A DNA stretch of 64,000 nucleotides from an uncultured Gammaproteobacteria bacterium (GCA_964621085.1 CAZUKY010000005.1:4991-68990); one strand, 5' to 3'. Positions 686-36,536 are shown, counted from the stretch's first letter. Notes: generated by a model not told the origin, from the sequence alone. Made by a program: numbers and translations.

Positions 686-1822
686 ATGAAAGCGAAAACT
701 CTTCTCTTCATCCTCGCGATCGCGGGCGTGCTGGCAGTCACATTTGTCTTCTCTCGCCAGCCTGATGAAGCACCACCTGCGCCGATTGAAAAGCCATCAG
801 AGAAAACACCTGCCGATGCGTCGATCCCTTATGAGACGATAGAAAAACCTAGCAGCGTACGCGAAAAATTGATCGATACGCGATCCGTACCGAACGCAAC
901 TTCCCATTTCAGATTCACAGCGCGCATCCCGACCGAGTGGGATATTGCAGCCATTTCTCAGATCGAAGCGCTCTCCGTATACCCTTTTGGCAAAGAAAAA
1001 ACATCTCCACTGGAAAATTCTCTGATCTTTATTCGCCATTTTACCGCAGATCACTTTCTCACGCTCCGCACGGTCGATATCCTTGAGCGGAGAGAAACAT
1101 CGATAAACGGCAGGCCCTCTGTCCGGTACCGCATCAAAAAGAAAGCGGGAGTTCCTGCGTTTGCTCACCAACCTGCTTGGCGCAATGACGAGCATGTTGT
1201 GACTGATATTAGGATCTCAGATCAGTCGCCCTCCGTTTTTTATGTCATCGCAAAATCGCCCGATCTTTCGGAACAGGCCTACCAAGCTTTTTTGACATCG
1301 CTTGATACTGGCGAGAGTGGTCGAACGCTTGCCGAGCCGATTACGGTGTTTCTCTCCCGAGTCACAAAAAAACCGTTCGGCATCTTTATCGAACCCAAGA
1401 CCTCACCCGTACAGCCCGAGCGGTTCCGCGGCTATCATACGGGAGTTGATGTCGAGTACGAAGACGCGTCCGGCGATGTGCCCGTGAACGCGATTGCAGA
1501 TGGTGTTGTGATCTTTGCGGACCGCACAACAGGTTATGGCGGCGTGGCAGCGCTCCGGCATTCCATCGGAAGCGAGAATGTGATCGCAATCTATGGGCAC
1601 CTGGACCCCGATCGCCTTCCTTCCCTCGAGACACGGCTGGAGCGCGGGATGCGCATAGGCTTTTTAGGAAAAGGTGGGACAGACGAAACGGATGGCGAGC
1701 GAACGCATCTGCATTTCGCGCTCTTCAAAGGAACACAGCTTGATCTGCGCGGATATGTGCAGAACGCTCAAGAGCTCGAGAAGTGGCACAACCCGATCGA
1801 ATTTTTTCAAGAGAAGCGCTAA
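686..1822 (+). CDS. Peptidase M23 family protein (LytM-like), secreted or membrane-anchored
   Basis: N-terminal signal/TM. C-terminal M23 motifs: HTGVDVEYEDASGDVPVNAIADGVV, AIYGHLD, HLHFALF. Confidence 0.8.
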   Translation: MKAKTLLFILAIAGVLAVTFVFSRQPDEAPPAPIEKPSEKTPADASIPYETIEKPSSVREKLIDTRSVPNATSHFRFTARIPTEWDIAAISQIEALSVYPFGKEKTSPLENSLIFIRHFTADHFLTLRTVDILERRETSINGRPSVRYRIKKKAGVPAFAHQPAWRNDEHVVTDIRISDQSPSVFYVIAKSPDLSEQAYQAFLTSLDTGESGRTLAEPITVFLSRVTKKPFGIFIEPKTSPVQPERFRGYHTGVDVEYEDASGDVPVNAIADGVVIFADRTTGYGGVAALRHSIGSENVIAIYGHLDPDRLPSLETRLERGMRIGFLGKGGTDETDGERTHLHFALFKGTQLDLRGYVQNAQELEKWHNPIEFFQEKR

Positions 1823-1834
1823 CGACTTCCCCTT

Positions 1835-3610
1835 ATGCACAATCCGAACGCCAACCTGCCCCGAACGACGTTTCGTTTCATTTGGGACGCGACGCGGCCG
1901 TATTCGCGATGGTTTTACGGTGCCATTTTTTTCTTGTTTCTCGCCGACCTGCTTGGAGGACTGCAATCCTATGCATTCCAGAAATTTGTTGACGCGGCGA
2001 CCAGTTATGGGGAAACAAACGGCTCGATCAGCGATGTTTTCTTCTGGGTTGCGGCCTATCCGCTCTTTCTTTTGCTTGCCGCAGGCAGCATCCGCGGGGT
2101 CGGATACATGCTCAACTACCTGACTGTCCATTCGCGGACACAGGCGGTCAAGTCGCTGTTCGAATACCTCTCACTCCACAGCATTGGCTTTTTTAACGAA
2201 CGGTTTGCAGGAGCATTGAGTAATCGCGTCACGCAGGTTGCCGGCAATGTGGCGCGTCTGCAGAACAACTTCATCTGGAGCATGCTCAGCCCCTTGTTTA
2301 CCTTTTTCGTCACGGCTACCCTCATCGCAACGGCAAGCACCGCGCTTGCGGTCGGATTTACGGTCGGATTTCTCCTCCTCATCCCGATCAACATCGCGTT
2401 GACGCGGCAACAAAAAGACCTGTCGGAAAAAATGGCGGCAACAGCCGCGCATCTGCGCGGTCAGGTGATCGACGTGGTCACCAATATCACGGCTGTTCAG
2501 CAGTTCGCGCTGCGCGGCCATGAACTGCAGCGCCTCGACACGTCCATAGCCGAGCATCGCGATGCCGATGTCGCGAGCGACAACTTCCGCGAACGCGTCC
2601 TTTTGTTCAATAACATTCTGATCTCGCTTTTTATCGGCGGGGTCATCCTCTGGGCGTTTTTTCTCTGGCAGCGTGAAGCAATGAGTCTGGGATCGCTGGT
2701 GATGATCGTGGCGCTTACCCGCGGCTTCATGCGCGATCTCTCCCACATCGGACAAAATATGAACTTTATCATGGAGGCGTATGGAGAGATGCGCGATGGA
2801 TTAAAGGATATCGCGCGACCGCACGCGATCACCGATGAGCCGAATGCCGTGCCGCTTGCCGTATCCCGCGGCGCGGTTGCCTTCGAGCGCGTGACGTTCG
2901 GATATGAAAACGATCCACGTAACGTTTTCAAAAACCTGGAGCTTCATACTGACGGCGGCGAAAAAATCGGCATTGTCGGACCCAGCGGAGCCGGCAAGAC
3001 GACGTTTGTGAAACTCCTGCTTCGCGAGCATGATGTCCGCTCAGGCACCATCACAATCGACGGGCAGGATATTCGCGAGGTGACACAAGAAAGCTTGCGC
3101 GAAAACATCGCGATCGTCCCGCAAGAGCCGCTCCTCTTCCACCGATCGATCCGGGAGAACATTCTCTACGGCAAACTCGATGCGAGCGAGGAAGAGATGA
3201 TTGCGGTCGCCAAAAAAGCCCAGGCGCATGACTTTATCACTGCCATTCCGGAGGGCTATGATGCGCTCGTCGGAGAACGCGGCGTCAAGCTCTCGGTCGG
3301 GCAGCGGCAACGCATCGCGATCGCGCGTGCGCTTTTGAAGAATGCGCCCATCCTGATTCTCGATGAGGCAACCAGCGCCCTGGACAGCGAGAGCGAGGTT
3401 GCGATCCAAAAAGCGCTGCACGCGCTCATGGAAGGAAAAACCGTCTTCGCTATCGCACATCGTCTCTCGACCTTGCGCGAAATGGATCGGATCATCGTAC
3501 TGAAAAACGGCTCAATCGTCCAAGATGGCACACATACCGCACTCATCGCATCAAAGGGAATCTACGCCTCCTTGTGGAGCCACCAAGCGAGCGGATTTCT
3601 TGCGGCATAG
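1835..3610 (+). CDS. ABC exporter, fused permease and ATPase (MsbA-like)
   Basis: Six-TM N-terminal half; Walker A GPSGAGKTT; ABC signature LSVGQRQRIAIARAL; Walker B ILILDEATSALD. Confidence 0.9.
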   Translation: MHNPNANLPRTTFRFIWDATRPYSRWFYGAIFFLFLADLLGGLQSYAFQKFVDAATSYGETNGSISDVFFWVAAYPLFLLLAAGSIRGVGYMLNYLTVHSRTQAVKSLFEYLSLHSIGFFNERFAGALSNRVTQVAGNVARLQNNFIWSMLSPLFTFFVTATLIATASTALAVGFTVGFLLLIPINIALTRQQKDLSEKMAATAAHLRGQVIDVVTNITAVQQFALRGHELQRLDTSIAEHRDADVASDNFRERVLLFNNILISLFIGGVILWAFFLWQREAMSLGSLVMIVALTRGFMRDLSHIGQNMNFIMEAYGEMRDGLKDIARPHAITDEPNAVPLAVSRGAVAFERVTFGYENDPRNVFKNLELHTDGGEKIGIVGPSGAGKTTFVKLLLREHDVRSGTITIDGQDIREVTQESLRENIAIVPQEPLLFHRSIRENILYGKLDASEEEMIAVAKKAQAHDFITAIPEGYDALVGERGVKLSVGQRQRIAIARALLKNAPILILDEATSALDSESEVAIQKALHALMEGKTVFAIAHRLSTLREMDRIIVLKNGSIVQDGTHTALIASKGIYASLWSHQASGFLAA

Positions 3611-4468: not shown

Positions 4469-6331
4469 TTAGGATCGCCCGTCGGACGATTCAACGAGAA
4501 GTTTCTGCCCTTCGCTCACGCCGGTAAGGACCTCTGTCTGCCCGTCGCGAGAACGGATCCCAAGCGCTACCGGCACGTCCCTTGTCTCGCCATTTTCATA
4601 GACCTTCACAAAAACTCCCTTCTCGCCGTCGAACACTGCGGCGTTTGGAATAAGCACCGCGTTATGTTTCGTCGATACGATGATCGCGACGGTTGCAGTC
4701 ATGCCGCTTGAAATCCGTTTCTCGGCCGTGTCGAGCGCGACATATGCAACGGCATTCAGTACTCGATCACCTTGCCGCTCGCCTTGTTCTATGCGGGTAA
4801 CGCGGCCGCCGAACCGTTCTCCTGAAATCTCATCAAAGGTCAGCTGCACCGGGTTGCCGACGGCAACCTTCCCCATGCCATCCTCCGGTACGACCGCGCG
4901 GACAAGAGGACTCGTCCCGGTGCCGATTGTGGCAAGCGACGTTCCGGGACCTACGACTGCCCCCTCTGTAACTGACACACTCAGAACGTTCCCGTCGATC
5001 GGCGATGCGACCGTGACCGTCCCGCCGTGCCGTGCAAAGGCAGCGTTTTGAAGCTCGAGTGCGTTGATGCGCGCCTTCTGTTGTATGATAAGTGACTGGG
5101 TATTTTGAATGCGTGCCTCAAGCTGGATGACTCTGGCTTGTTTCTCGCTGACCGTCTGCACTTTCGGCTCGAGAGCCGCCGCGGAGACCGTCTGTAATGC
5201 AGCCTGTTTGGCTGGTGGATTTTTCATAATAAAGTCAACGTACCACTGCGCATGTGCGATCCGCTCTGCGCTCGCCTTTTTCTCGCGTGCAATCGCATCC
5301 CGCCGTGCCGAGAGCTGTGCAAGCGCGTCTGCGATATTTGAGCGAGACCAGAGCACTTTATTTTTGTAATGGCTCGCGGTTGCAGATGGAATGTTTTCGG
5401 CGACGTCCAGTGCGGCTGCGAGGCGGGTCAGGTACGTCCGCACCGTCTCCCCGTTTTCCAGCGCAATGATGATGCCGGTATCAAGGCCATTATAATCGAA
5501 CGCGTTTGCGCCGAGTCGGACACTCTGCAGTGAGTGAGCCGCGGAGAGCGCATTCGCTCGCCGCTCCCGCAGCTCGGCGGCGGTAGGGCTCACGCCAGGA
5601 CGCATTGCAAGCCATGTGTCCGATCCGGAAAACAGTTCCTGAGAATACTGGCCGACGGCATCGAAAGCGCGCAGATGAAGCAAGGCAAAGACCTCCGGCA
5701 CGGGCGCGTAGACGCGCGCCAAATCTTCTCGTGCCTGCTTCTTTGCGTCCTCAAGCGCAGCAAGCGCCTCTTGCTTCTGCTTCTCATAGGCGGACGCGCT
5801 GGGCGCTGGCGATACGTGTTTTGGCGCAGGCGGCTGAGGCGAAAGCGATGTGGGTGCAGACGGGACTGGTGTCGACGGTTTTGGCGATGGTGTTAGTTTC
5901 CGAGGTTGCGGCGACTCGACGGCAACCGTCTGCGCTTTTTTGATTCGGGCCAACAGCGCTGTATCTTCTGAAAGAGTTTTCTCGAACGAGCGCAGGCGCG
6001 TCCGCTCTTCAGCAAGGCTGCGCGCAAGGGACTCGGACGTCGCGGCCGCATTATCCAGCCGGATCTCGATCAGCGCTTCTCCTCTTTTGATTGGCGCGCC
6101 ATCTTTTCGGTGGACCTTTGTCACACGACCTTTTGCCTCGCCCTTTAACTCTATGGACTGTGCGGCATCGACAACACCCGCAGCAAGCACCTCCTCGGAA
6201 ATATCGCCACGGACCACGCTGACGATATTCGGGGGTTCTTCGCGCTTTTGCGAAGAAACAACGGCAAAAACTCCCGCCCCGGCCGCGAGAAGCGCAAAAA
6301 ATGCGATTCCTTTTCTTATAATCATATGCAA
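4469..6331 (-). CDS. HlyD-family membrane fusion protein / periplasmic adaptor subunit
   Basis: N-terminal TM, long coiled-coil, Pro/Ser-rich linker, C-terminal beta-barrel/lipoyl-like region typical of MFP adaptors. Confidence 0.75.
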   Translation of the reverse strand: MHMIIRKGIAFFALLAAGAGVFAVVSSQKREEPPNIVSVVRGDISEEVLAAGVVDAAQSIELKGEAKGRVTKVHRKDGAPIKRGEALIEIRLDNAAATSESLARSLAEERTRLRSFEKTLSEDTALLARIKKAQTVAVESPQPRKLTPSPKPSTPVPSAPTSLSPQPPAPKHVSPAPSASAYEKQKQEALAALEDAKKQAREDLARVYAPVPEVFALLHLRAFDAVGQYSQELFSGSDTWLAMRPGVSPTAAELRERRANALSAAHSLQSVRLGANAFDYNGLDTGIIIALENGETVRTYLTRLAAALDVAENIPSATASHYKNKVLWSRSNIADALAQLSARRDAIAREKKASAERIAHAQWYVDFIMKNPPAKQAALQTVSAAALEPKVQTVSEKQARVIQLEARIQNTQSLIIQQKARINALELQNAAFARHGGTVTVASPIDGNVLSVSVTEGAVVGPGTSLATIGTGTSPLVRAVVPEDGMGKVAVGNPVQLTFDEISGERFGGRVTRIEQGERQGDRVLNAVAYVALDTAEKRISSGMTATVAIIVSTKHNAVLIPNAAVFDGEKGVFVKVYENGETRDVPVALGIRSRDGQTEVLTGVSEGQKLLVESSDGRS

Positions 6332-6426
6332 TCAGGCTCAAAACTTCAAAAAAGCCCTGTCACTGTAGCAGAGGTTTTTCCCAAACGCAAACGCTCGAAT
6401 ATCCTTCATTTCATAGGCTGTATGTA

Positions 6427-6455
6427 TTGACTTTCCCCCCTTATTCGTCTATACT
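6427..6455 (+). promoter_or_regulatory. Sigma70-like promoter for the zinc-ribbon gene
   Basis: TTGACT (6427-6432), 17-nt spacer, TATACT (6450-6455). Confidence 0.55.
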
Positions 6456-6546
6456 GGGTGTACGATCACTTGAGGCGAAAAATACGATGAATACGAAAAG
6501 GTCGGTTCACCTCACGACGATTCGATACTCTTAATCAGGTGAACCT

Positions 6547-6792
6547 ATGTACGACCAGAACAATCAGGGTCCTGCCCCGATGCGTCAGCTGTTTGACGTC
6601 ACGTCGCTCAACCTGACCTGCACCGAGTGCGGAGCGGCTATCGAAAAGCTGCCGTTCCAACCGACGGAAAAGGAAGACGGGACCTACGGCCGCATCTATT
6701 GCCGCGACTGTAACCGCAAGCGCCGCGAAAAGTTCGGCGGCCCGCGCAGCTTCGGTGGCCCGCGCCGCGACTACAATCAGGAAGCTGCATAA
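6547..6792 (+). CDS. Small zinc-ribbon protein (CxxC...CxxC)
   Basis: 81-aa ORF with CTEC...CRDC pairs and a Gly/Arg-rich tail; SD AGGTGA upstream. Confidence 0.6.
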   Translation: MYDQNNQGPAPMRQLFDVTSLNLTCTECGAAIEKLPFQPTEKEDGTYGRIYCRDCNRKRREKFGGPRSFGGPRRDYNQEAA

Positions 6793-7295
6793 ATTTCCTG
6801 AAACACGAAAAGACCCCGGTCATCCGGGGTCTTTGTCGTTAAAACGTTTTTCAGTTCTCTTCAGACCCTCAAGAACGCTATTTCCAAAAATAAAAACCCT
6901 CTTGCAGACGGCCATGGGGGGCCATAACCGTCTAAAAGAGGGTGGCATGCACAATCCCTATCCCACTCAGAACGCGCATCCGCATCGCTCTTCGCATGGC
7001 GAATGAAAATCCTGAGTGGGACGAGGAAAACCTCATCCCAGGGGTCTCTTCTTGAAAGAGCGGTGAGCGGGATCGTGCCAAGGACGAACAAAATGCCGAC
7101 TCTGACCACCGTTCCCCCCACTACGATGATGAGTTTAGCATTGGTTGATTGGTATGTCAATGGGTTTTTTGACAATTTACCAGAGAAATTGCTATTTTCT
7201 TTTTATTTATAACAAAAATATACTCTTTTTCGACGAAAAAATATCGTATTTTTGTCTTCCTGAGCCTATAAAAAATCCGGTTGTCCACAGAACTA

Positions 7296-7324
7296 TTGAC
7301 AAGCTCTAGCTATTTATCTATACT
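7296..7324 (+). promoter_or_regulatory. Near-consensus sigma70 promoter
   Basis: TTGACA (7296-7301), 17 nt, TATACT (7319-7324); no + strand protein gene downstream. Confidence 0.6.
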
Positions 7325-7331
7325 GCTATAT

Positions 7332-7790
7332 TATTCCCGAACTTCCGGAAGGTTGGGGTTTTTGCAGTAAGCTGCACTCAGCAATAAGGAACTGAAGGGA
7401 ATAAGGGGTGAGTGCGCGCCCCGGTGAGGCGTGCATAGCAAAAAAACGAAAGGAGGAACCCTATGAGCGGGAAGATCAGGCTTAGCGCCTACAAGCCCGG
7501 GCCAGATCGCCGATGCCACGAGAGTGGTGGCGGCGGAGGCCTGTAGCCCCTCCCGCGGGTGTCTGTCGTCGATAACGTCCCCGGTTGTCGATCATTTCCA
7601 AGCAGTTGGTACACGCCTTACAGCGTGCACCAGTAACTTCGGCTAAGACAGCCATACGTTACGAAACAGAAGGGCGCATCAAGCCCAACATGAGACCATC
7701 GCGACCCTAGGGCGACACCTGCGGCCCGAGGCTCATGCATCCCTTGGCCTCGGTGAGAGAGAACCTCTCCACCGGGGCCTATTTACATTC
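7332..7790 (+). ncRNA. Candidate structured noncoding transcript, unassigned class
   Basis: About 460 nt GC-rich with no ORF of 60 aa or more on the sense strand and multiple hairpins. Carries a consensus SD plus a 27-codon ORF (7463-7546). Convergent with the TrmB-like gene. Confidence 0.3.
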
Positions 7791-7798
7791 TAAAATAC

Positions 7799-8545
7799 TT
7801 AATCCGTAGGAAGATCCTTGCTGCCTTGCAGCGCAAGATCGAAAAGAAGGCGGAATGTATTTGCAAGCGTCTCACTTTCAATGAGAATCGTGTACATCTT
7901 TCCTTGGAACGTCGTAATGTCGATCTTCTTTCCGTAGACGCTAATACTGGACTTAAAGCCGCCCTTACTGTCCGGCAAAAAATAGCGGTTTGATTTTGCC
8001 GTCTTACCGGCTGGGGCGCCGGAATAAATGCCGTAAAATTCGGTACGGGCCTTCTTCAAGTGCTCCTGCAACGATTGCACGTCCTTTTTATCAAGAGTGG
8101 ACAAGAGCGCCTCTAAGTCGGTCAGTTCGTAGCAGGTCTTTTCCTGCAAAAATTCCATATCCGTAATATATGCGTGCACTCCTTCTTTCCCTTCGATCAC
8201 CTTTACGGTCGGGCGTTCCCCTCCCTGAAGAAGGTTAAGTTCCGGCATCGCGCGCTCGATATCTGACGCTTTATCCCGAAATTCGAGCTCTTTGCGCTTG
8301 ACGTATGAGTACAGTTTTTCCGGCGGCTCGGCGATATAATAACGTTTTTTGCCCTTGGTAACCGTAGACATGAGACCCTTTTCTACCAACGTCTCGATGG
8401 CATTGTAGATCGTCTGGCGCGAGAGTCGCGTCTTTTTTGTAATATCGATCACGGTGCTGGGGCCGGTCTCCAGCACATTTAGATATGTCTTCGTCTCGCC
8501 ATCGGAAAATCCCAGCGAGCGAAAGATTGGCGTCATGTCTGTCAT
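7799..8545 (-). CDS. TrmB-family transcriptional regulator (paralog 1)
   Basis: N-terminal winged-HTH ([41 protein letters not shown]); start overlaps the ruvB stop (ATGA). Confidence 0.8.
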
Positions 8546-9582
8546 AGGAATGCCTGTTGTGATGATTCTTGAGGTTTATGTTCCGATGAGTGATTGAGGT
8601 GCGCGTAGGCATGCTCGGTTGCGATGCGCCCGCGCGGAGTTCGCTGCAAAAAACCGATCTGCATAAGGTAGGGTTCGTGCACGTCCTCGATCGTCTCCAT
8701 TTCTTCAGAGAGCGATGCGGCAACCGTATTCAGCCCGACCGGCCCGCCGCCGAACTTACCGATAATCGTCTCGAGGATCCTGCGGTCCATCGCATCTAGG
8801 CCCTTCCTGTCGATGCCCATGGCGGTCAATGCTGCATCAGCACCCGCTTGCTCAATAATACCACTTCCCTTCACTTGCGCGTAGTCCCTTACGCGTTTGA
8901 GAAGCCGGTTCGCAATGCGCGGGGTACAGCGGGATCGTGAGGCGATCTCTGCCGCCCCATTGGCCTCGATGCCGATATTCAGAATGCGCGCCGAGCGCGC
9001 GAGAATATCTTTAATATCGTCATGGCTGTAAAAATCGAGGTGAAAAAGATTCCCGAAACGGTCGCGCAGCGGCCCGGACAACAGGCTGACGCGGGTTGTC
9101 GCACCGATAAGCGTGAAGCGCGGCAGATCGAGTCGGATCGTGCGCGCCGCCGGTCCTTTGCCCAGAACAATATCGAGCGCGTAATCCTCCATTGCCGGAT
9201 ACAGGCTCTCGGCGATGACTTTTGAGAGTCGGTGGATCTCGTCGATGAAAAGAATGTCGCCGTTTCCCAGATTTGTCAAAATGGCAGCTAAGTCACCGGC
9301 GCGCTCCAGCGCGGGCCCGGACGTAACGCGAATATTCGCACCCATCTCATTCGCGATCACGTGGGCCATTGTCGTCTTCCCGAGCCCGGGCGGCCCCGAG
9401 AGCAGAACATGCTCCAGATGCTCCTCCCGCTGTTTTGCCGCGTCGATAAAAATGCGCAAGTTGTCCTTGACGGCATGCTGCCCGATGTACTCGTTAAGCG
9501 TCTGCGGCCGCAGGCCGACATCAAAAAGACTGTCCTCGCCCTTGAGGTCTGGGATTGAAATATGTTCCTGAGAGGACTCCAT
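8542..9582 (-). CDS. ruvB: Holliday junction branch migration ATPase RuvB
   Basis: AAA+ Walker [10 protein letters not shown], sensor motifs and C-terminal winged helix; length typical. Confidence 0.95.
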
Positions 9583-9732
9583 AGCTTGATCCCCTCAATC
9601 CTATCAAGAAGCCGCGAGAAGCTCAAATAGCGGTTCTATTTTTGAAAAACAAAAACCCTTTTTGACGCGATCTCTGACGAGGTCAGGTCAAAAAGGGTGC
9701 GGAAAATTTTTCCGCGAAGCATAAAAGAACGA

Positions 9733-9996
9733 TCAGGGCCCCAGGAGCTCGAGGAGTTCGAGCGTGACGCGCGCGAAGAACTCGTCTTCGAACGCAGCGT
9801 CGTCCTCGATATCATCGAGTGGAATCTCATAGGAGACTTTGAGGACTGCCACCGCCATCATGACACGCACGAAGCAGGCTTCGCACGCCATGAAGTGATG
9901 GATCGCCTCATCCGAGACGTCCTGTGGCGGGGTCGGGGAGTTGACGAAGACCGCCTGAGCGATCTCGGTCACCTCGAAGCTGCTGAGAGTCGACAT
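9733..9996 (-). CDS. Hypothetical small acidic protein (87 aa)
   Basis: ATG with SD GGAGGG at 8-nt spacing; an overlapping + strand ORF (9697-10167, GTG start) is the alternative. Confidence 0.3.
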   Translation of the reverse strand: MSTLSSFEVTEIAQAVFVNSPTPPQDVSDEAIHHFMACEACFVRVMMAVAVLKVSYEIPLDDIEDDAAFEDEFFARVTLELLELLGP

Positions 9997-10208
9997 GAGA
10001 GAACCTCCCTTTCGCGGACCTTCGAGGCAAGATATCGCGCGACACCTTCAACCCCTTTCGGAAACTCGCAGATATTCGGATCTCCGAAAGAGGGGGAACA
10101 CGTTTCCATGTTCCCGGTCGCCGAGCGCAATCGCATTGCGATACTCGAGGCGACGCCCGTTTTTTAACGAGGTATATGCGGTCCTCGTGGCGATGCGATA
10201 TCGCCAAA

Positions 10209-10564
10209 TGGTGGAGATGGCGGGAGTCGAACCCGCGTGTCTCAGAGTTTTTCGTACCATCGTCTACGAACGTGTCTCCTTTCTTCAAAGGAGCAAAGCA
10301 GCGCTGCTATGGATCAGCGCATCCCCCTTCAGAAATTCGCTCTGGAGGGAACGGCTCAGCACGTTATCTTGAGATCTGACCGCCGTGCCAGCAATCAGAT
10401 CCGCATCCTCTCCTTAACGTCATTTTGGCGTACGAGGTGCTCCACCAATGACGGGGTGGCTTAGGCCGCCGCGGTTGTTTTTTTGAGCCTGATTTTACGG
10501 GATCGGACTCACTCCCGGCTCGCAGATGATACGCCTCGCTCAAGAGCGAAACCGTTACATCCCC
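10209..10564 (-). ncRNA. ssrA: tmRNA (SsrA), one-piece, CCA encoded
   Basis: 5' GGGGATGTAACGGTTTCG and 3' GCGGGTTCGACTCCCGCCATCTCCACCA; acceptor stem with the G3:U70 alanine identity pair; T-arm GGTTCGACTCC. Confidence 0.85.
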
Positions 10565-11109
10565 TCACGCACCAGTGCCGGCGCTGGGGCGAGAGGGAGT
10601 GTCCGATTCGTCGATGCGCATCAAAGACAACCCTTCTTCAGATGACAAACACGGAATCATCTGAAGAAGAGGCGCAACCTGATGGGAGTTGCGCGTAGTA
10701 CCTGCTCACTGGCCGACCGTTGGTCGGTTTCACACGCTGTGGGCGGGTAGTCGCCCCTGGTTTACCTGCACCAGAAGGACGTTGGCACGTCACCGTTTCC
10801 CGGCACACGTCGGGCGCCCCTTCGATCGTCATGAATGTGTGGACTCAGACGCAGCCGCAGTCACAGCCTCAGACGAGCTCCTCCCCGCAGACCCAGACAC
10901 AGGCTGGTATCCATGGGTGCGGGAGTCGCTCCGAGATGTGAGGCGGAGCCGTCTGGCTCAGCATCATTCATCAGGCGCAAGAAGCGCCCAATGCCATCTT
11001 GTGACATGACGACCGAAGGGTGGCGCTTCGAGCCCATCCGCGAGACGAACATCCTTCTCGGTGTTCGTCTCGTGTCAGGCTCTCCGCACCCAAGCCCGGG
11101 TGTGGCCGC

Positions 11110-12051
11110 CTACTCCGTGCGGACCTGCAGACCTGCAATCTCTTGCAGGGCCTGCTGGCGCAGCGTTTCGGCGGCCGACCGGAGGCGCTCCATCTCCAGC
11201 TCGTAGGCTTTCACCTCGAGCTGGTAGGCCCCGAATTCGGCTTGGTAGCGACGCTCATGCGCGAGGTTGTACTCGCGCACGGCGTCCTTGATCTGCTTCC
11301 GACAGCTGTTCAGCCGCTTCTGCAGATCGTCGTACCGCGCCTGGAGCTCGTCGCGCATGCGCGAGAGCCCCTCCAGGGCCCCGGAGTCGTACGCCCGCTC
11401 CCACGTGGTGATGATCACCCCGTTTTGGGTCGGCTGCTCGCTGCCTTTCGGCAAGGGAGCGGCCAACTTGCGGAAGAAGGCGCCGTTCTCCGAGAGGAGC
11501 TTTCCGATCGCCGCGGCCCGACTGTTCAGTCCGATCGCCTCTTGCCAGAAGGCGAAGTCGAACTGCGCGAGCACCTCGGGGCTCAGGTTCTCGATCATCT
11601 CATCGATGCTCGAGAGGTCCATGAACCTTCTGGTGTCACAGGTCGAGCCGCTCTTGGGCGCGGCTGGCTGCTGCGGACGCTGAGGCATGGCCTCGGCCAC
11701 GAAGGGCCGGAGGTCCATGGTCTCGAGCGCGTCGCGCAGCCGCTGATGCAGCTTGAGGCCGTGCATCAGCGTCGCCGTCTCGGCGTTGCGCTCGGCAACC
11801 GCGTCGACCCCCCGAAGCTCCTCGGGAGTGACGGTGGTGCCGCGCAGCGCGCGAGGCGAGCTGTCGCCGCCGCCCAGGAAGGAAACCGCCTTGACGAACA
11901 CCCCGGCGATCGCATCGTCGATCAAGCTCCAGAACCCGTCGTTCTTTTGCTTGTTCTCCGCCTGGATCCGTCCCACCTGGGACACCGAGGTGCCCGCGGG
12001 GGCGAGGAAGGTGGTGACGAGAGCGCCGAAGATCTTCGTGAGGCTTTCCAT
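11110..12051 (-). CDS. Hypothetical protein (313 aa) with a C-terminal coiled-coil, in a high-GC island
   Basis: SD AAGGAG 7 nt upstream; very high GC3 codon usage; the opposite-strand ORF is an R/L/G/H-rich shadow. Confidence 0.6.
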   Translation of the reverse strand: MESLTKIFGALVTTFLAPAGTSVSQVGRIQAENKQKNDGFWSLIDDAIAGVFVKAVSFLGGGDSSPRALRGTTVTPEELRGVDAVAERNAETATLMHGLKLHQRLRDALETMDLRPFVAEAMPQRPQQPAAPKSGSTCDTRRFMDLSSIDEMIENLSPEVLAQFDFAFWQEAIGLNSRAAAIGKLLSENGAFFRKLAAPLPKGSEQPTQNGVIITTWERAYDSGALEGLSRMRDELQARYDDLQKRLNSCRKQIKDAVREYNLAHERRYQAEFGAYQLEVKAYELEMERLRSAAETLRQQALQEIAGLQVRTE

Positions 12052-12302
12052 TTTCTTACTCCTTCTCTGAGGGTTGCTCGGACAGCACAGACCGTTTCTG
12101 CGCTATTTTCCCCTCTCCTAAAACCGCAAGTGCTGCGGACTTAAGAGAGGGGTGCCACCCCTCAGGAGATCGCTTGAAAGAAAAGAACAAAGGGTTTCCC
12201 CTTCTTCCGATGTCTTTTTTGAAGACAGCGAAAGAAGAGGGTGCAAGTGTGTCTTGCACCTTTTGCGCGATTCTCCTTTCTTTGCGTGCGACGTGGCGGC
12301 GA

Positions 12303-12506
12303 TCACCGGTGCTTCCCCGATCCTGATGGCGTCAGGATGAAGAAGCGCGGCATCTTCCGCTCTGCCTTGTTGGCAACGGCTACCCATCGCCGGTACTCCG
12401 CCTCGGTCATGCCCAGCTGGTTGAGGGCCTCTGAGAGCGTTTCCGGGGCGACGAGCTTCCCCGTCCACGACCGCCCGACGACGGCTTTGGCTTGGCTATT
12501 GGTCAT
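12303..12506 (-). CDS. Hypothetical small protein (67 aa), first gene of the island operon
   Basis: SD AAAGGAG 8 nt upstream of ATG; high-GC composition like the downstream 313-aa gene. Confidence 0.5.
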   Translation of the reverse strand: MTNSQAKAVVGRSWTGKLVAPETLSEALNQLGMTEAEYRRWVAVANKAERKMPRFFILTPSGSGKHR

Positions 12507-12757
12507 TGGGCATGCTCCTTTCGTATCTGCCCCCGATCGAATCTCCTCCTCAAGGACTCGATTCTGTCAACCAACATCCGGCAGTCTAGCATAGTTGAGA
12601 TATTATGTCAAGTATTTACTTTAAATAATTTATAGTAATCTTTAATTTAATTATAAATATAACGAAAAAAATATGACATATAGTCATATTATTTCTTTAT
12701 AATACAATTTCATACTGGGGAATATTCCTCAATATGTCATTTTCTTCTAACGGATAC

Positions 12758-12786
12758 TTGACAATATCGAACTGATCTGCTATGCT
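12758..12786 (+). promoter_or_regulatory. Near-consensus sigma70 promoter
   Basis: TTGACA (12758-12763), 17 nt, TATGCT (12781-12786), at the end of an AT-rich tract. Confidence 0.55.
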
Positions 12787-12792
12787 TATACG

Positions 12793-13116
12793 GTCACTGG
12801 ATAGCGGTATTCGCCAAATCACCGGCGACACCGCTGAATGCGAGCCCAGAAAGGAGGAACTTTATGGGCTCTTCCGAAGGGTAGGGGTAAATAACCCCTA
12901 GTCTCTCCGAACGCGCTCCTCTCGCGTTTCGGGTACAGAGATCCACGTACGACACATCGGTCGAGAAATGCCGGAGAACTTCGGCATGCCGAGCGTCATG
13001 CTCACTACTCGACCGCAAACTCGGTTTCCGTTCCACTGCAGAGAGGAGGAATGCAATGGGCTGTGGGAACTGATCCCCTTTGGGGGCGCCAAGCTGCCGC
13101 GTTAGTGCAGCTTTTT
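12793..13116 (+). ncRNA. Candidate structured noncoding transcript, unassigned class
   Basis: About 320 nt with nested hairpins, two SD-ATGGGCT micro-ORFs (6 and 5 codons) and a hairpin + T5 terminator; convergent with TrmB paralog 2. Confidence 0.3.
13091..13116. terminator. Intrinsic terminator, likely bidirectional
   Basis: AAGCTGC-loop-GCAGCTT followed by TTTTT on the + strand; lies just past the TrmB2 stop on the minus strand. Confidence 0.6.
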
Positions 13117-13137
13117 ACTTTGTGCAATAAGTGCGGA

Positions 13138-13890
13138 TTAGTCCGAGGGAAATTTCTTTGCGGTCTCTGTTGCAAGTTTAAAAAGAATGCGGAGGGTTTG
13201 CGCCAGGGCTTCATTCTCAATAATCACGGATTGGATCCCTCCCTTTACCGATACGAGAGAAATCTTATTTTTATAGATAAGCACGTCTGTCCCGAAGTTC
13301 CCGTATTCTTTTGGCAAGTAGTGGCGAATCGAGCGCGCACTTCTGCCCTTTGGCGCACCCGTAAGCAGGCCATGGAAAGAAATGGTCTTGTTTTCTAAAA
13401 GTTTTTTTCGGATCAGGGAAACATCTGTTTCGTCAAAAATGGCATAAATGGCATCGAGGTCGGCGATCTCGTAAATGATTTCATTGTCGGTGGTTGACGC
13501 CATGTCCATGAATACCTGCATAGCACCCTCCTTGCCGTCATACACGCGGACCGATGTTTGTTGGGTGGCCTTTTTAAGCTTCAACTCAGGAAGAAGCTCT
13601 TTCAAATCTGACTCGAACTGCGACAGCTCGTGCGCCTTGCGGCTGATATATTGCCCGATTTTTTCGGGATCGTCGACGACGTAGTATTTTTTCTTTCCTC
13701 GTGTAACACTGGACATCAGTCCTTTATTCGCCAAAGACTCTACGGCAACATATGTCGCTTGCCGAGAGAGTTGCGTGTATTTGGCAAGATCAATAATACT
13801 GGTAGTCCCTCTTTCAAGGGCAACAAGATACGTCTTAATCTCACTTTCGAGAAATCCGAGCGACTTGAGTAGAGAGTGAATGGTCTGCAT
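13138..13890 (-). CDS. TrmB-family transcriptional regulator (paralog 2)
   Basis: Aligns along its full length with the 7799-8545 product (same HTH, same C-terminal domain). Confidence 0.8.
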   Translation of the reverse strand: MQTIHSLLKSLGFLESEIKTYLVALERGTTSIIDLAKYTQLSRQATYVAVESLANKGLMSSVTRGKKKYYVVDDPEKIGQYISRKAHELSQFESDLKELLPELKLKKATQQTSVRVYDGKEGAMQVFMDMASTTDNEIIYEIADLDAIYAIFDETDVSLIRKKLLENKTISFHGLLTGAPKGRSARSIRHYLPKEYGNFGTDVLIYKNKISLVSVKGGIQSVIIENEALAQTLRILFKLATETAKKFPSD

Positions 13891-13922
13891 AGATCGATAC
13901 GTTCATTTTCGTATGAATCCTA

Positions 13923-14369
13923 TCAGGAAGCATAAAGAATCTCAAATGTGATATGGATCGCGTCGGTGGGCACGATATCGCGGACTCGCTCGGGCCACTC
14001 GATAAACGTTACGGTGTCCGGACTGCCCAGATAATCCACTGCGCCGATCGCGGCGAGTTCGGCTCCTGACGAGAGCCGGTACGCATCGATGTGGCACAGG
14101 GAAAGTCGCTCCCCACGGTAGGTTTTCATGAGAACAAATGTCGGGCTTGTGACGGTCTCGTGCACGCCCAGGGCATGAGCGCATGATTGGACAAAGGTCG
14201 TCTTGCCCGATCCTAGATTTCCGGAAAGCGCGACGATCTCTCCGCCCCGGAGCGTCGAAACGAAACTGCGCGCGAGCGCAACAGTATCCTGAAGCGACGC
14301 AGCCTCGTGCGCCTTCTCTTCGCCGGCGTGCTTGATCGTAATAAGCCGCTTATGCGGATGTTTTTCCAT
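13923..14369 (-). CDS. tsaE: tRNA t6A37 biosynthesis ATPase TsaE
   Basis: P-loop GNLGSGKTT; YjeE-like size; overlaps the tsaD stop. Confidence 0.85.
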   Translation of the reverse strand: MEKHPHKRLITIKHAGEEKAHEAASLQDTVALARSFVSTLRGGEIVALSGNLGSGKTTFVQSCAHALGVHETVTSPTFVLMKTYRGERLSLCHIDAYRLSSGAELAAIGAVDYLGSPDTVTFIEWPERVRDIVPTDAIHITFEILYAS

Positions 14370-15414
14370 ACAGCGTCCAGTTAGGGTCTGCAGAAAGTTT
14401 TTCCCACGGCGTAAAAAGTTTCTTCTCTGCGCGGAAATACCCGGCCAATGCGATCATTACCGCATTATCCGTACAGTAGCCAAGACTCGGATAATAATAC
14501 GAGACTCCGGGCAGAGTGCGAGTCACCGCTTCCCCAAGCGCAGCGCGCAGCTGCCGATTCGCAACCACGCCGCCCCCGAGCACGATCGAACGAACGCGCT
14601 CTCGTCCGGCCGCGCGGATCGTCTTTGCAACCAGAACATCGGTGACCGCACTCTCGAACTCGGCACAGATGTCGGCAATCGCTTTCTTGGTAAACTTTTT
14701 TTCTTTTTTCATACGTTCGACAAGATAGAGCACGGCGGTCTTGAGGCCGCTAAAGCTGAACGCGTCGTCGCCCGAGTCGATCATCGGCCGAGGCAAGTGA
14801 AAGACGCCCGGACGCCCCTTTTGCGCCCAGCGGGAAATCTCGGGACCGCCGGGGTAGCCGAGCCCCATGATCTTTGCCGCCTTGTCAAACGCCTCTCCTG
14901 CCGCGTCGTCGCGGGTCGCTCCCAGCAGCCGATACTTCCCATGAGATTTCATGTGGTTCAGCTCTGTATGGCCGCCTGAGACCACCAGCGCCAGCGCGGG
15001 AAAAGCGATGTCAGAGTGCTCCATCCAGTTTGCAATGATATGGCCCTCGATATGATTGACGGACACGAGCGGCTTTTTCCAAAGATAGGCAAGCGTCCGC
15101 GCCGTCTCGACGCCGACCAACAGCGACGTGACCAGTCCCGGACCGGCAGTTACCGCGATCACATCTGGTTTCACCCCACCAAGCGCCTTCTCGATGACCG
15201 GAACGATCTTGAGAATGTGATTGCGCGCGGCACCCTCAGGCACGACCCCGCCGGTTTTCGCATGAATCTTCACCTGCGATGCCACAACGTTTGACCGCAA
15301 GACAAAACGCCCACGCTTCACTTCCAACAGCGCGGCAGCTGTCTCGTCACACGAGCTTTCAATGCCAAGGATTTTCATACATATAAAGCAGTACGAGTGT
15401 ATCAGTGTTTGCAT
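14350..15414 (-). CDS. tsaD: tRNA N6-adenosine threonylcarbamoyltransferase TsaD
   Basis: Kae1/Gcp family; MKILGIESSCDETAAAL start motif (true start probably the internal Met at about 15378). Confidence 0.9.
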   Translation of the reverse strand: MQTLIHSYCFICMKILGIESSCDETAAALLEVKRGRFVLRSNVVASQVKIHAKTGGVVPEGAARNHILKIVPVIEKALGGVKPDVIAVTAGPGLVTSLLVGVETARTLAYLWKKPLVSVNHIEGHIIANWMEHSDIAFPALALVVSGGHTELNHMKSHGKYRLLGATRDDAAGEAFDKAAKIMGLGYPGGPEISRWAQKGRPGVFHLPRPMIDSGDDAFSFSGLKTAVLYLVERMKKEKKFTKKAIADICAEFESAVTDVLVAKTIRAAGRERVRSIVLGGGVVANRQLRAALGEAVTRTLPGVSYYYPSLGYCTDNAVMIALAGYFRAEKKLFTPWEKLSADPNWTLYGKTSA

Positions 15415-31606: not shown

Positions 31607-32110
31607 CTAGAGAGCCCAGAAGCCACTGATCGCCGACGGCTCGAACGAGCGCATCGGCGCAGAGCCGAACGTGGAGCTCTTGACAAATCCACCGCCATCG
31701 ATCCTCGGGTACTCGACCAAGGTATTGAAGCACCCTGGCCGGGTCTCCGGCGACGCGATGACGAGCGCAGTGCGGTTGGTCAGCCAGATGGTCCGTGACG
31801 GGACGTCCTCATCCTCAAGATGCGAAAAGATGCGCAGGTTCGGCCGCTCTGCCATCCAGGGATACGAGTTGAGGATCGAGTCCTTGAGCCGCACGTAGAC
31901 GAGATCGCTGACCTTCACTTGCTGACCATCGACTTCGAGGATATAGCGCTGGTTCTCGTACGTGTCGACCCGCTCCGCCGCGACATCCTTGTAGGAAACG
32001 GCGCCGACAGAAACGATCTCGAGCGTGACAGGAACTTCGATGACATCCCTCTGCGACTGCTGGCTGCAGCCGATCAGGGGCATGGCCACGAGCAGAGACA
32101 ACCACTTCAT
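31607..32110 (-). CDS. Hypothetical lipoprotein
   Basis: Signal peptide with lipobox LIGC. Confidence 0.55.
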   Translation of the reverse strand: MKWLSLLVAMPLIGCSQQSQRDVIEVPVTLEIVSVGAVSYKDVAAERVDTYENQRYILEVDGQQVKVSDLVYVRLKDSILNSYPWMAERPNLRIFSHLEDEDVPSRTIWLTNRTALVIASPETRPGCFNTLVEYPRIDGGGFVKSSTFGSAPMRSFEPSAISGFWAL

Positions 32111-35938: not shown

Positions 35939-36448
35939 ATGTCTACCATTAAGCAATATACCCGTAAGCGAAAATGGACGGAAAATCAATTTAAGGAAGC
36001 GGTTATCACAAGTAGAAGCAAACGACAGGTATTAAAAAAGTTGGGGTTACGAGAAGCCGGCGGCAACTACTCCCAAGTTGAAAAATATATAAAAGAATAT
36101 CGTTTAAACACATCTCATTTTACTGGATATGCTTGGAGTCGTGGGTTGACGGGTATTGGTAAGCCATTCCTTTCTCTCGCAGAAATTCTAACGATAAATA
36201 GTTCCTATCAAAGCTATAAGTTAAAGTTACGATTATTCGCAGCCGGTTTAAAGAACCAAAAATGTGAAGAATGTGGTTGGGCAAAAAAATCTAATGATGG
36301 ACGAATACCCCTCGAACTTGATCATGTAAATGGTTGTCGAACTGATAATAGAATAGAAAACCTACGCATTTTATGTCCAAACTGTCACAGCCTTAAGCCA
36401 ACTCATAGAAGAAGAAAGGATTGCAAAGCATTTGTAGGAATACATTAA
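35939..36448 (+). CDS. HNH endonuclease
   Basis: HNH motif LELDHVNGCRTDNRIENLRILCPNCHS; AT-rich relative to its neighbours. Confidence 0.8.
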   Translation: MSTIKQYTRKRKWTENQFKEAVITSRSKRQVLKKLGLREAGGNYSQVEKYIKEYRLNTSHFTGYAWSRGLTGIGKPFLSLAEILTINSSYQSYKLKLRLFAAGLKNQKCEECGWAKKSNDGRIPLELDHVNGCRTDNRIENLRILCPNCHSLKPTHRRRKDCKAFVGIH

Positions 36449-36452
36449 TCCT

Positions 36453-36536
36453 GTCCGGGTGGTGGAACGGTATACACGCGTCACTTAAAATGACGTTCCG
36501 TAAGGATTGAGGGTTCGAATCCCTCCCCGGACACCA
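36453..36536 (+). tRNA. tRNA-Leu (anticodon TAA), type II, CCA encoded
   Basis: Anticodon loop CTTAAAA, long variable arm, T-arm GAGGGTTCGAATCCCTC, acceptor GTCCGGG/CCCGGAC. Confidence 0.9.

Follow-up and report, generated by a model that had tools for sequence, protein, structure and literature searches.

The DNA analysed in this study is a stretch of 64,000 nucleotides (nt) filed under an uncultured Gammaproteobacteria bacterium (GCA_964621085.1 CAZUKY010000005.1:4991-68990); it is called the window below, and all coordinates refer to it unless a relative's locus is named. A part of the window rich in guanine and cytosine (GC), at 10565-12790, lies between the transfer-messenger RNA (tmRNA) gene and TrmB2, a gene of the TrmB regulator family, and carries a two-gene operon on the minus strand. 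An initial annotation had taken this part for an old or partial insertion, possibly from a high-GC donor; here, we describe it as a rare accessory operon whose coding RNA is predicted to be densely folded. The RuvB protein of the window was 72-76% identical to Candidatus Uhrbacteria proteins, and the host is therefore a bacterium of the Patescibacteria (candidate phyla radiation, CPR).

The GC content of the whole window was 54.0%, and that of the segment 11001-12000 was 66.3%. In 200-nt steps, GC ranged from 62 to 71% across 10700-12000 and dropped to 24-32% at 12500-12800. The core at 10700-12550 (62.9% GC) was the maximum among all 1850-nt windows (z 3.5; 4.1 without overlapping windows), and its tetranucleotide distance had a z of 3.9. 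GC over the exact span 10565-12790 was only 58.7%, because an AT-rich tract and the leader fall inside it. The larger gene (11110-12051, minus strand) encodes a protein of 313 amino acids (aa) and has an AAGGAG Shine-Dalgarno (SD) sequence 7 nt ahead of its ATG. The smaller, a 67-aa leader open reading frame (ORF) at 12303-12506 on the minus strand, has an AAAGGAG SD sequence 8 nt ahead of its ATG, and its GC at the three codon positions (0.59/0.51/0.81) is coding-like. GC at third codon positions (GC3) was 0.89 and 0.81 in the 313-aa and 67-aa genes, respectively, compared with 0.61 +/- 0.08 in 43 other genes (z = 3.4). Thus, both genes and their SD sequences were as the initial annotation had described, GC3 was as extreme relative to the flanking genes as it had stated, and windowed GC, GC3 and tetranucleotides all bear out the compositional outlier; the uniform composition that would have spoken against it was not seen across the window (GC z 3.5-4.1). 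A 374-aa ORF on the plus strand (11020-12144) was rejected as the antisense shadow of the high-GC3 gene (GC1 0.85).

The 313-aa protein had 59 full-length homologues with 44-61% identity (59 clusters at 90% identity), and the named ones all belong to Patescibacteria, namely Uhrbacteria, Doudnabacteria, Paceibacterota and Saccharibacteria. An exhaustive profile search over 1.84 billion representatives added only about 130 further clusters, none with a taxonomic name; at 50% identity the family has 131 representatives, compared with more than 7900 matches for RuvB. A metagenome scan yielded just 9 more loci, short for the most part. With 49 invariant residues in the family alignment and a ratio of nonsynonymous to synonymous divergence (dN/dS) of about 0.16, the family is, judged by its sequences, real but rare. 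The initial annotation recognised no family for the two proteins. The curated libraries (Pfam, PHROGs, PADLOC and PDB sequences) indeed gave only sub-threshold coiled-coil noise for the 313-aa protein and its distant relatives, while the 59 homologues form a well-conserved family outside them. The AlphaFold2 model (mean pLDDT confidence 83) predicts a bundle of helices, two beta hairpins and, at the C-terminus, a helix of 54 residues. A Foldseek search against the PDB found no significant fold match (best E 0.031, template-modelling (TM) score 0.18-0.21), the top non-significant entries being ClyA, SmhA, MakB and BipD. A full-length structural match was found in the uncharacterised protein A0A6J5N6M1 of an uncultured Caudovirales phage (E 2e-9, TM 0.64-0.66), and a 98.6-kb phage carries, in its early/replication region, a gene with 34.6% identity to the distant member P0171. 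No match was found by tblastn of the window protein and P0109 against phage records, and the 2.9 million contigs of IMG/VR held no relative of the 313-aa protein.

To assess the folding of the coding RNA, minimum free energies (MFE) were calculated with ViennaRNA and compared with permutations of synonymous codons, which keep the protein, the codon usage and GC3 fixed. The MFE of the 313-aa coding sequence (CDS) was -507 kcal/mol, against -424 +/- 7 kcal/mol for the permutations (z = -11.5); against dinucleotide shuffles, the z was -10.2. The codon-permutation z of 11 homologues ranged from -3.2 to -9.3, while ten named control genes gave +0.7 to -3.2 and 47 further ORFs of the window averaged -0.9 with a standard deviation of 1.5. 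An ORF outside the island, the 167-aa ORFan at 31607-32110 (minus strand), has a GC3 of 0.81 yet a z of -0.4; therefore, GC3 alone does not create such hyper-structure. The sense strand was more stabilised than the antisense strand in seven of seven genes, and along 11050-11800 the sense z was -4.9 to -7.3 against -2.3 to -3.0 for the antisense. This points to RNA with G-U pairs and not to DNA palindromes. In the predicted structure, about 75% of the nucleotides were paired, mostly in local hairpins with a median pair span of 38 nt. Hyper-structure was also seen in other genes of the relatives' islands (the loci of relatives carry labels of the form L001 to L142): the z of a Ro60 gene in L008 was -10.9 and that of ORFs in L001 and L002 was -5 to -8, while the TrmB and flanking genes of the loci had a z near 0.

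Part of this structure is shared among relatives. From a MAFFT alignment of 17 CDSs, RNAalifold predicted 91 pairs, and a 7-bp inner hairpin added by eye brought the consensus to 98 pairs. Across the alignment, these pairs were formed in 89% of cases, compared with 83.6% in shuffles and 37-41% with slid partners. Covariation was found at 33 pairs, and 103 alignment cells were compensatory against 42.5 in shuffles (0/500). An example is the nested hairpin at the 3' end of the CDS (11116-11165, minus strand; columns 1112-1161 of alignment A8), where compensatory changes were seen at 10 pairs of helices 20 and 21, in part with a change of the encoded residues (LQEIAG, AARELAA, AQQELAN). Synonymous divergence was low as well: between L010 and L140, dS was 0.49 for the family gene and 1.06-2.3 for its neighbours at similar dN (2-5 times lower), and between L006 and L007 the proportion of synonymous differences (pS) was 0.51 against 0.85. 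At the nucleotide level, the L010 and L140 genes were 84.7% identical and their flanks 70-77%, which makes the gene the best-conserved DNA of the neighbourhood. On these predictions, the transcript is packed with local hairpins beyond what the protein and the codon usage need, and part of them is kept by compensatory substitutions.

The high GC of the gene was found in every carrier measured. In 10 of 10 loci (nine distinct contigs), the family gene lay 8-15 GC points above its locus, with locus and gene values of 39 and 54, 44 and 52, 45 and 59, 47 and 58, and 50 and 61%, respectively, and of 54 and 66% in the window; the homologue loci in Patescibacteria had 39-50% GC. The native composition in relatives that would have spoken against an outlier was not seen in the carriers measured. 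In L010, GC3 was 0.25-0.31 for the ribosomal-protein genes, 0.25-0.38 for the ribosomal-protein, EF-Ts and release-factor genes together, and 0.65 for the family gene. In L008, L010 and L140, the module occupies one shared site between rpmE and prfA, and the family GC3 was 0.65-0.75, compared with 0.25-0.38 (L010) and 0.47-0.68 (L008) for the flanking core genes. The identities of prfA, S2, TrmB and family products were 90, 92, 95 and 86%, respectively, between L010 and L140, and 79, 76, 70 and 62% between L008 and L010. Between the window and the Uhrbacteria relative L003, RuvB, TsaD, TsaE and the family protein were 72, 57, 45 and 54% identical, respectively. Co-divergence with housekeeping genes, together with the kept high GC3, indicates that the GC excess has been maintained through vertical descent and is not that of an unameliorated import.

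The GC-rich tail beyond the 313-aa gene holds a structured RNA. The initial annotation had described this tail as abutting the 5' end of the tmRNA without a convincing ORF, and indeed no ORF with a conserved frame was found at 10565-11110; what it had missed is an RNA motif. Alignment of the 3' flanks of all loci revealed a block of about 160 nt, 170-300 nt past the stop codon on the gene strand. In the window, this GUCUG-repeat motif is at 10777-10940 on the minus strand, 170 nt past the stop codon (102.4 bits with our covariance model R2). The model gave 23 matches of 48-131 bits, with one copy after the homologue in 22 loci, the window included, and the motif follows the gene in all loci with sufficient 3' sequence. 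Its consensus begins with UCGGAGY..YCCCGC, about 15 nt, (GUCUGN)x3 and CAGGGR..RCUCGUCUG, and continues with about five more CUG-NGN hexamers, YCYACA, an AUG/GUG and GGC-RYCUUU-GCC. Thus, each motif has about nine CUG-NGN hexamers, with CUG triplets 3 nt apart in two blocks (of three and about six). The 11-bp helix P1 (GAGY-NNN-YCC with GGR-NNN-RCUC) encloses the first three hexamers and is accompanied by a 3-bp hairpin; examples of its covariation are UUUU/AAAA, GUUU/AAC and CCU/AGG. In an alignment fitted to model R2 itself, 11 of 14 pairs were compensatory, and the share of paired cells was 88%, compared with 77% for shuffles (0/500) and 40-54% for slid controls. A local GGAG-loop-CUCC hairpin was rejected as an alternative to P1, being lost in several sequences, while the long-range P1 covaries. 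A scan of Rfam 15 at gathering scores gave no family for the motif, and a scan by E-value gave only chance-level snoRNA and fluoride matches at E 2-5.

The motif block shows one-nt indels and shifting frames, and it is therefore not coding on either strand. The tail ORFs (on the plus strand a 106-aa ORF at 10689-11009 and a 123-aa ORF, on the minus strand a 64-aa ORF at 10638-10832) were rejected, since they have only the nucleotide block in common and their frames and ends differ; the ORF at 10638-10832 begins at the conserved AUG/GUG, and its GC3 (0.57) is below its GC2 (0.63). A loose DNA pattern, CTGCAGRGR-N3-5-CTCGTCTG, gave 120 mostly chance matches to unrelated bacteria in 186,000 genomes; the real motif was present just in L012, L101 and L121, each time beside a homologue. 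A consensus scan placed a candidate terminator-like hairpin (8-bp stem and weak U tract) between the motif and the tmRNA at 10672-10694 on the minus strand. In L135, a tandem second copy of the motif was seen (1219-1377 and 1380-1485), the second being cut by the contig end.

On the other side of the operon, the initial annotation had seen a very AT-rich tract as the right edge of the insertion. The tract is real (12560-12790, minus strand, 24-32% GC). It contains a near-consensus sigma-70 promoter with an extended TG, TTGACA-17-TAGACT, at 12611-12583 on the minus strand, and palindromes with TGTCA/TGACA cores at 12667-12681/12732-12746 and 12697-12750, which are putatively operator-like. Both of its strands fold at z = -7.7, as DNA palindromes should. 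The spacers of relatives follow an identical plan, with an AT-rich tract and then GTCAAAAAT.CTTGACAAA-17-TATACT. The shared layout means that the supposed boundary is the promoter and operator of the operon, with the TrmB2 gene inside the same unit. TrmB2 itself (13138-13890, minus strand; Pfam PF01978, E 7.4e-10, 39 bits against a cutoff of 25.6) has 46% GC and a codon-permutation z of about 0. Comparison of the neighbourhoods of 13 long homologue loci showed a TrmB-family gene upstream in 13 of 13, on the same strand or divergent, mostly about 1-1.4 kb away and 4.7 kb in L008. The edges at 10565 and 12790 are thus not insertion edges, since the adjoining TrmB2 belongs to the conserved module. 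The outer neighbours vary by locus (aspS, clpP, prfA/rpmE, fmt/def or tsaE/ruvB), and 0-5 kb of small ORFans follow the homologue, for which PHROGs and PADLOC gave nothing usable and no family match.

The 67-aa ORF had no homologue in the databases. At the leader position of L006, L007, L101, L001 and L141 there are small ORFs that make up a weak family with the common ending I-x-T-P-x-G-G; the window ORF, ending in ILTPSGSG, fits it only loosely, so that homology is not proven, and it probably encodes a small protein. Between it and the 313-aa gene, an intercistronic leader (12052-12302, minus strand) is also folded, with 300-nt sense windows at z = -5.1 and -7.8, and contains two terminator- or attenuator-like hairpins at 12260-12240 and 12204-12189. 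A paralogue of TrmB2, TrmB1, is encoded at 7799-8545 on the minus strand (PF01978, 54 bits); the two are 40% identical, and both are nearest to the ruvB-linked TrmB of L003. After the stop codon and terminator of each TrmB gene and before the AT-rich promoter, there are 300-450 nt of normal GC (12794-13137 and 7330-7798) without conserved ORFs, where folding was mildly negative on both strands (z about -3 to -4).

Several relatives carry further RNA-linked features. Type III hammerhead ribozymes were found in L006 (7892-7942, 9448-9503 and 11062-11117) and L007 (7906-7960), in the 5' UTRs of successive island genes, each some 40-50 nt ahead of a start codon, either that of the family gene or that of a gene downstream. 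The copies detected with Rfam RF00008 scored 29-43 bits (E 4e-6 to 0.046) over the full length, under the gathering cutoff of 48.5, and their stem II covaries; one hammerhead of L006 was seen just by eye and with the custom model R1. The first two of L006 bracket the family gene and the RNA motif and would release a 1558-nt RNA with ligatable ends. At 10500-13200 of the window, no hammerhead was found at E <= 5 with Rfam or with R1. Hammerheads were rejected as a general feature, since scans of 8 loci by R1 and Rfam E-value found them only in L006 and L007. In L008, the GC-rich island includes a Ro60/TROVE (vWA_Ro60) gene (5885-7627) immediately upstream of the family gene, and in L004 a gene for the RNA ligase RtcB (4527-5747) lies 3.3 kb downstream of the homologue. 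L009 has a 130-nt "mini-tmRNA" (10178-10307), which is the tRNA-like domain (TLD) of tmRNA only, on the same strand and 1.1 kb downstream of the family gene. It has the acceptor stem, the T arm and helix P2, with 51 nt replacing the mRNA-like and pseudoknot part of about 290 nt; it sits at the GC-rich edge and shows no obvious tag ORF and no encoded CCA. Linkage to tmRNA was rejected as a general feature (2 of 13 loci). At the far end of the L006 island, a split large serine recombinase (12044-13578; Resolvase and Recombinase/Zn_ribbon) abuts a tRNA-Ile gene, and a VirD4/TraG-like gene (1674-3365) is upstream; judging by these genes, the L006 copy may be in or beside an integrative element. 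Taken with the tRNA-like RNAs, the hammerheads, Ro60 and RtcB make an RNA-centred role plausible, none of them being universal.

The tmRNA gene (ssrA) of the window is at 10209-10564 on the minus strand (Rfam RF00023, 103.1 bits against a cutoff of 47, E 3.6e-39), with a full-length match (model positions 1-374) and an encoded CCA. ARAGORN missed it, and its tag region or pseudoknot layout may therefore be atypical. Just downstream, a minus-strand 87-aa ORF (9733-9996, SD AGGGAGG) is followed by two terminator-like hairpins (9655-9715); it has an H-x3-C-x2-C motif as in zinc-binding anti-sigma factors and no Pfam match. The initial annotation had reported no integrase and no repeats. All ORFs at 9700-13900 were free of recombinase and integrase domains (noise only, rve_3 at E 0.33), no repeat of the tmRNA end (10209-10260) was found within 9000-14500, and no repeat bounds the GC-rich stretch itself. 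Its statement thus holds at the GC-rich edges; a larger block is flanked by a 32-nt direct repeat. One copy (13916-13947) is at the true 3' end of tsaE, in the spacer between tsaE and TrmB2 (reading FEILYAS*), and the other (9597-9628), just upstream of ruvB, is a relic of the tsaE 3' end, reading FELLAAS* in the tsaE frame. The copies match at 26 of 32 positions, with a chance probability estimated at about 0.003-0.01, and bracket a 4.3-kb block (9629-13915) of TrmB2, the operon, the RNA motif, the tmRNA and the 87-aa ORF. In L003, tsaD-tsaE-ruvB-TrmB are contiguous, and TsaE and RuvB are fused in some relatives.

From the repeat, the contiguity in L003 and the fusions, it follows that the block came to lie between tsaE and ruvB at some point, whether it was inserted or arose in a segmental duplication with later loss, as far as the sequences tell. 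The synteny check proposed earlier thus did find tsaE, ruvB and TrmB adjacent in a relative with no block between tsaE and ruvB, but the block exceeds the GC-rich island: the event is far larger than the GC-rich stretch and unrelated to its composition. Other loci also show the module splitting usually adjacent genes (fmt/def in L142, 5592-10826; rpmE/prfA-prmC in L008, L010 and L140), which suggests that the TrmB and operon unit inserts or is kept as a block.

In this study, we believe, with somewhat better than even confidence, that the high GC comes from selection for RNA structure in a rare accessory operon conserved across Patescibacteria, and not from a high-GC donor. The order of the operon is the TrmB regulator, the AT-rich promoter/operator tract, the leader ORF, the 313-aa gene and the 3' GUCUG-repeat RNA. 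We speculated that TrmB2 represses a strong promoter, and that derepression would yield a hairpin-dense RNA, probably RNase-resistant and long-lived, which encodes both proteins. Its CUG-repeat 3' element may serve as a protein-binding or stabilising end, and in some lineages type III hammerheads would cut the polycistron between genes. Selection on base pairing of the sense RNA would keep G+C high, mainly at third positions, whatever the host genome, and would also slow synonymous divergence. The GC content thus most likely reflects selection for RNA structure, a causal link that we infer.

Several points weigh against this explanation. The mRNA structure is predicted from ViennaRNA MFE, with only 8-20 shuffles per gene. 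The 98-pair consensus was predicted on the very alignment on which it was tested, which inflates the paired percentage, and only 10-25% of MFE pairs are common to homologues, so that the structure is possibly largely generic. Downstream island genes in L007 and L008 were weakly structured (z -0.5 to -3.1). High GC could permit the structure and not result from it, although codon permutation does hold GC fixed, and the lower dS could come in part from recombination between lineages. Horizontal spread among these bacteria probably happened, given the sparse occurrence in Patescibacteria, the phage relatives and the serine recombinase of L006. The roles given to TrmB2, to the leader ORF and to the GUCUG element are inferences, as is the role of RNase resistance.

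The initial annotation proposed an old or partial horizontal insertion, possibly from a high-GC donor. With a composition still unameliorated, such an insertion would fit the deviation of the stretch from its host in GC, GC3 and tetranucleotides, the lack of any curated family, the sparse distribution and the position of the block between tsaE and a tsaE relic. We nevertheless consider it very improbable. None of the homologues found belongs to a named high-GC taxon, the named close ones being all Patescibacteria, and neither these nor the roughly 130 profile-search clusters revealed a compositionally matching lineage; the GC offset of +8 to +15 is repeated in hosts of 39-54% GC and persists vertically in L008, L010 and L140, where the copies show no decay. 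A donor can account neither for folding in excess of composition-keeping codon permutations nor for covarying helices, and the compositional edges have no integrase or att-like repeat. What stands of the proposed acquisition is a rare accessory module, a 4.3-kb block between tsaE and ruvB, which are contiguous in L003, and distant phage relatives; the GC-rich stretch is probably not DNA from a high-GC donor, and its composition is a constraint of the locus rather than a sign of origin. Quite improbable as well is a recombination hot spot in which GC-biased gene conversion would account for the raised GC and the lowered divergence, and the RNA structure would be incidental. High GC at third positions and in the non-coding tail, the low dS and an identity above that of the flanks agree with it, but it does not predict folding excess over permutations of the same composition (z -3 to -11.5 in 12 of 12 genes), sense-strand bias or compensatory pair changes, and the leader and promoter of the same operon are not GC-rich. 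As for translational selection on a very highly expressed gene with preferred G/C-ending codons, the near-consensus promoter with its AT-rich upstream tract, the strong SD sequences and the extreme GC3 speak for it. We hardly believe it, since the bias is missing in the ribosomal-protein, EF-Ts and release-factor genes of the same loci, and neither position-specific synonymous choices that make hairpins nor the GC-rich non-coding parts would be explained.

The stretch might also be what remains of a Patescibacteria phage or other mobile element, or a satellite of one, which keeps its own composition through continued movement and whose structure serves the element, e.g., in packaging or processing. 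Such an origin would be in line with the structural match to A0A6J5N6M1, the distant member in a 98.6-kb phage, the hammerheads between island genes of L006 and L007 and the small ORFans downstream, as well as the serine recombinase by tRNA-Ile and the VirD4-like gene upstream in L006. The sparse distribution and the position of the module between usually adjacent genes (fmt/def in L142, tsaE/ruvB in the window) agree with movement, too. On the other hand, the close members had no relative in 2.9 million IMG/VR contigs or in phage records, and capsid, terminase, replication and recombinase genes are missing in the window and most loci. In one clade, the position is stable and the gene has diverged together with housekeeping genes; the divergence between the window and L003 is like that of core genes, and the TrmB partner is host-like in composition. 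We therefore regard a mobile origin as unlikely, with more in its favour than a foreign donor.

The genomes of RNA phages are likewise structured coding RNA. Studies have shown that positive-strand RNA viruses, e.g., hepatitis C virus (HCV) and coronaviruses, have pervasively structured coding RNA, or genome-scale ordered RNA structure (GORS) (PMC3950689, PMC7642675). Similarly, the folding energy of the CDS was far below that of order-randomised controls in 12 of 12 family genes (z -3.2 to -11.5), local hairpins are dense, synonymous divergence is suppressed (L010/L140 and L006/L007), and coding and structure overlap. In contrast to GORS, the operon RNA comes from a bacterial chromosome, is linked to a regulator and has no replicase, and its structure is partly kept over phylum-level distances, while the details of GORS are as a rule poorly kept. 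Obelisks and other viroid-like agents are ribozyme-bearing, protein-coding circular RNAs (10.1101/2024.01.20.576352). Like them, the operon has a structured RNA of about 1-1.5 kb that encodes an orphan protein, with flanking hammerheads in L006 and RtcB nearby in L004; unlike them, it is DNA-encoded and regulator-linked, and the window has no hammerhead. The predictions gave no support for a fold that is rod-like or circular: the MFE structure is multibranched, with a median span of 38-39 nt, at most 24% of pairs on one axis and just 8-12% long-range pairs.

The GC-rich stretch resembles the islands at ssrA 3' ends in adjoining the tmRNA gene with an atypical composition. It differs in lying on the 5' (promoter) side of ssrA, in having no integrase or duplicated ssrA 3' end, and in that the module is without tmRNA in 11 of 13 loci. 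RNA-repair operons with Rsr (Ro60), Y-RNA and RtcB exist in Deinococcus and Salmonella. As in these, genes linked to structured RNA cluster around the family gene (Ro60 in L008, RtcB in L004, tmRNA in the window and the TLD RNA in L009); in contrast, Ro60 and RtcB were present in single loci only, the 313-aa protein is unrelated, and no Y-RNA or RtcR match was found. We take this link as a lead, not as membership. The targets of TRAP contain eleven GAG/UAG triplets and those of HutP two sets of three UAG triplets. The 3' motif is similar in having about nine CUG triplets at 3-nt spacing, but the triplet is another, the first block is inside a covarying helix, and no TRAP or HutP homologue was detected. 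The 313-aa protein, as modelled, resembles ClyA-type alpha pore-forming toxins and type III secretion tip proteins in its long bundle of helices and its short beta hairpin, and Foldseek gave no significant match to the ClyA/Hbl/Nhe/Smh fold (best E 0.031).

In full-text literature searches, no account of a locus of this kind in Patescibacteria was found, and we found no description of a bacterial chromosomal family whose whole coding RNA is selected for dense structure, a property known from RNA viruses. The feature is real and unusual, and the observation of the initial annotation stands with a new explanation. The parts that are new are an uncharacterised protein family with phage relatives, a covarying RNA motif strictly linked to its gene, a recurring pairing of a TrmB regulator with structured RNA, and a co-occurrence with hammerheads, Ro60, RtcB and tRNA-like RNAs. 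For genome scans, the locus is a caution: an outlier in GC and codon usage is usually read as foreign, and here it is a constraint of the locus in every carrier. The operon could give insight into how RNA is stabilised, processed or exchanged in the poorly understood and mostly episymbiotic CPR. A bolder thought, which we hold only tentatively and think doubtful, is that the operon is a cellular, DNA-encoded counterpart of virus-like "ordered" RNA, with regulator-controlled, hairpin-saturated and partly conserved mRNAs, a CUG-repeat end and, in some lineages, ribozyme-cut units that could be ligated, so that the RNA would be a functional product beside the protein. If so, the RNA might be RNase-proof or exported, or form a ribonucleoprotein with the 313-aa protein, and the operon might descend from ribozyme-bearing RNA replicons of Patescibacteria as a domesticated relic, or form a bridge to them.

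Two other places in the window deserve mention. Downstream of TrmB1, a second unit of the same plan is seen on the minus strand (6886-7175), with an AT-rich tract, the operator-like TTGTCAAAAAACCCATTGACA (7175-7155), the promoter TTGACA-17-TAAACT (7160-7132) and a strong terminator (6933-6886). Its GC-rich transcript of about 240 nt (MFE -113 kcal/mol) is a candidate new non-coding RNA (ncRNA); no Rfam family was matched at the gathering score, and blastn found no relative in the fetched loci. A 104-aa ORF at 6861-7175 (codon-permutation z -7.0) was rejected as spurious, its span being that of the promoter-to-terminator ncRNA candidate, and it is not kin of the 105-aa island proteins. At 35939-36448, a 169-aa ORF with 37% GC, a GC3 of 0.29 and no Pfam match ends 5 nt before a tRNA-Leu gene (36453-36536); as a candidate for acquired DNA, this AT-rich outlier is more conventional than the GC-rich stretch.

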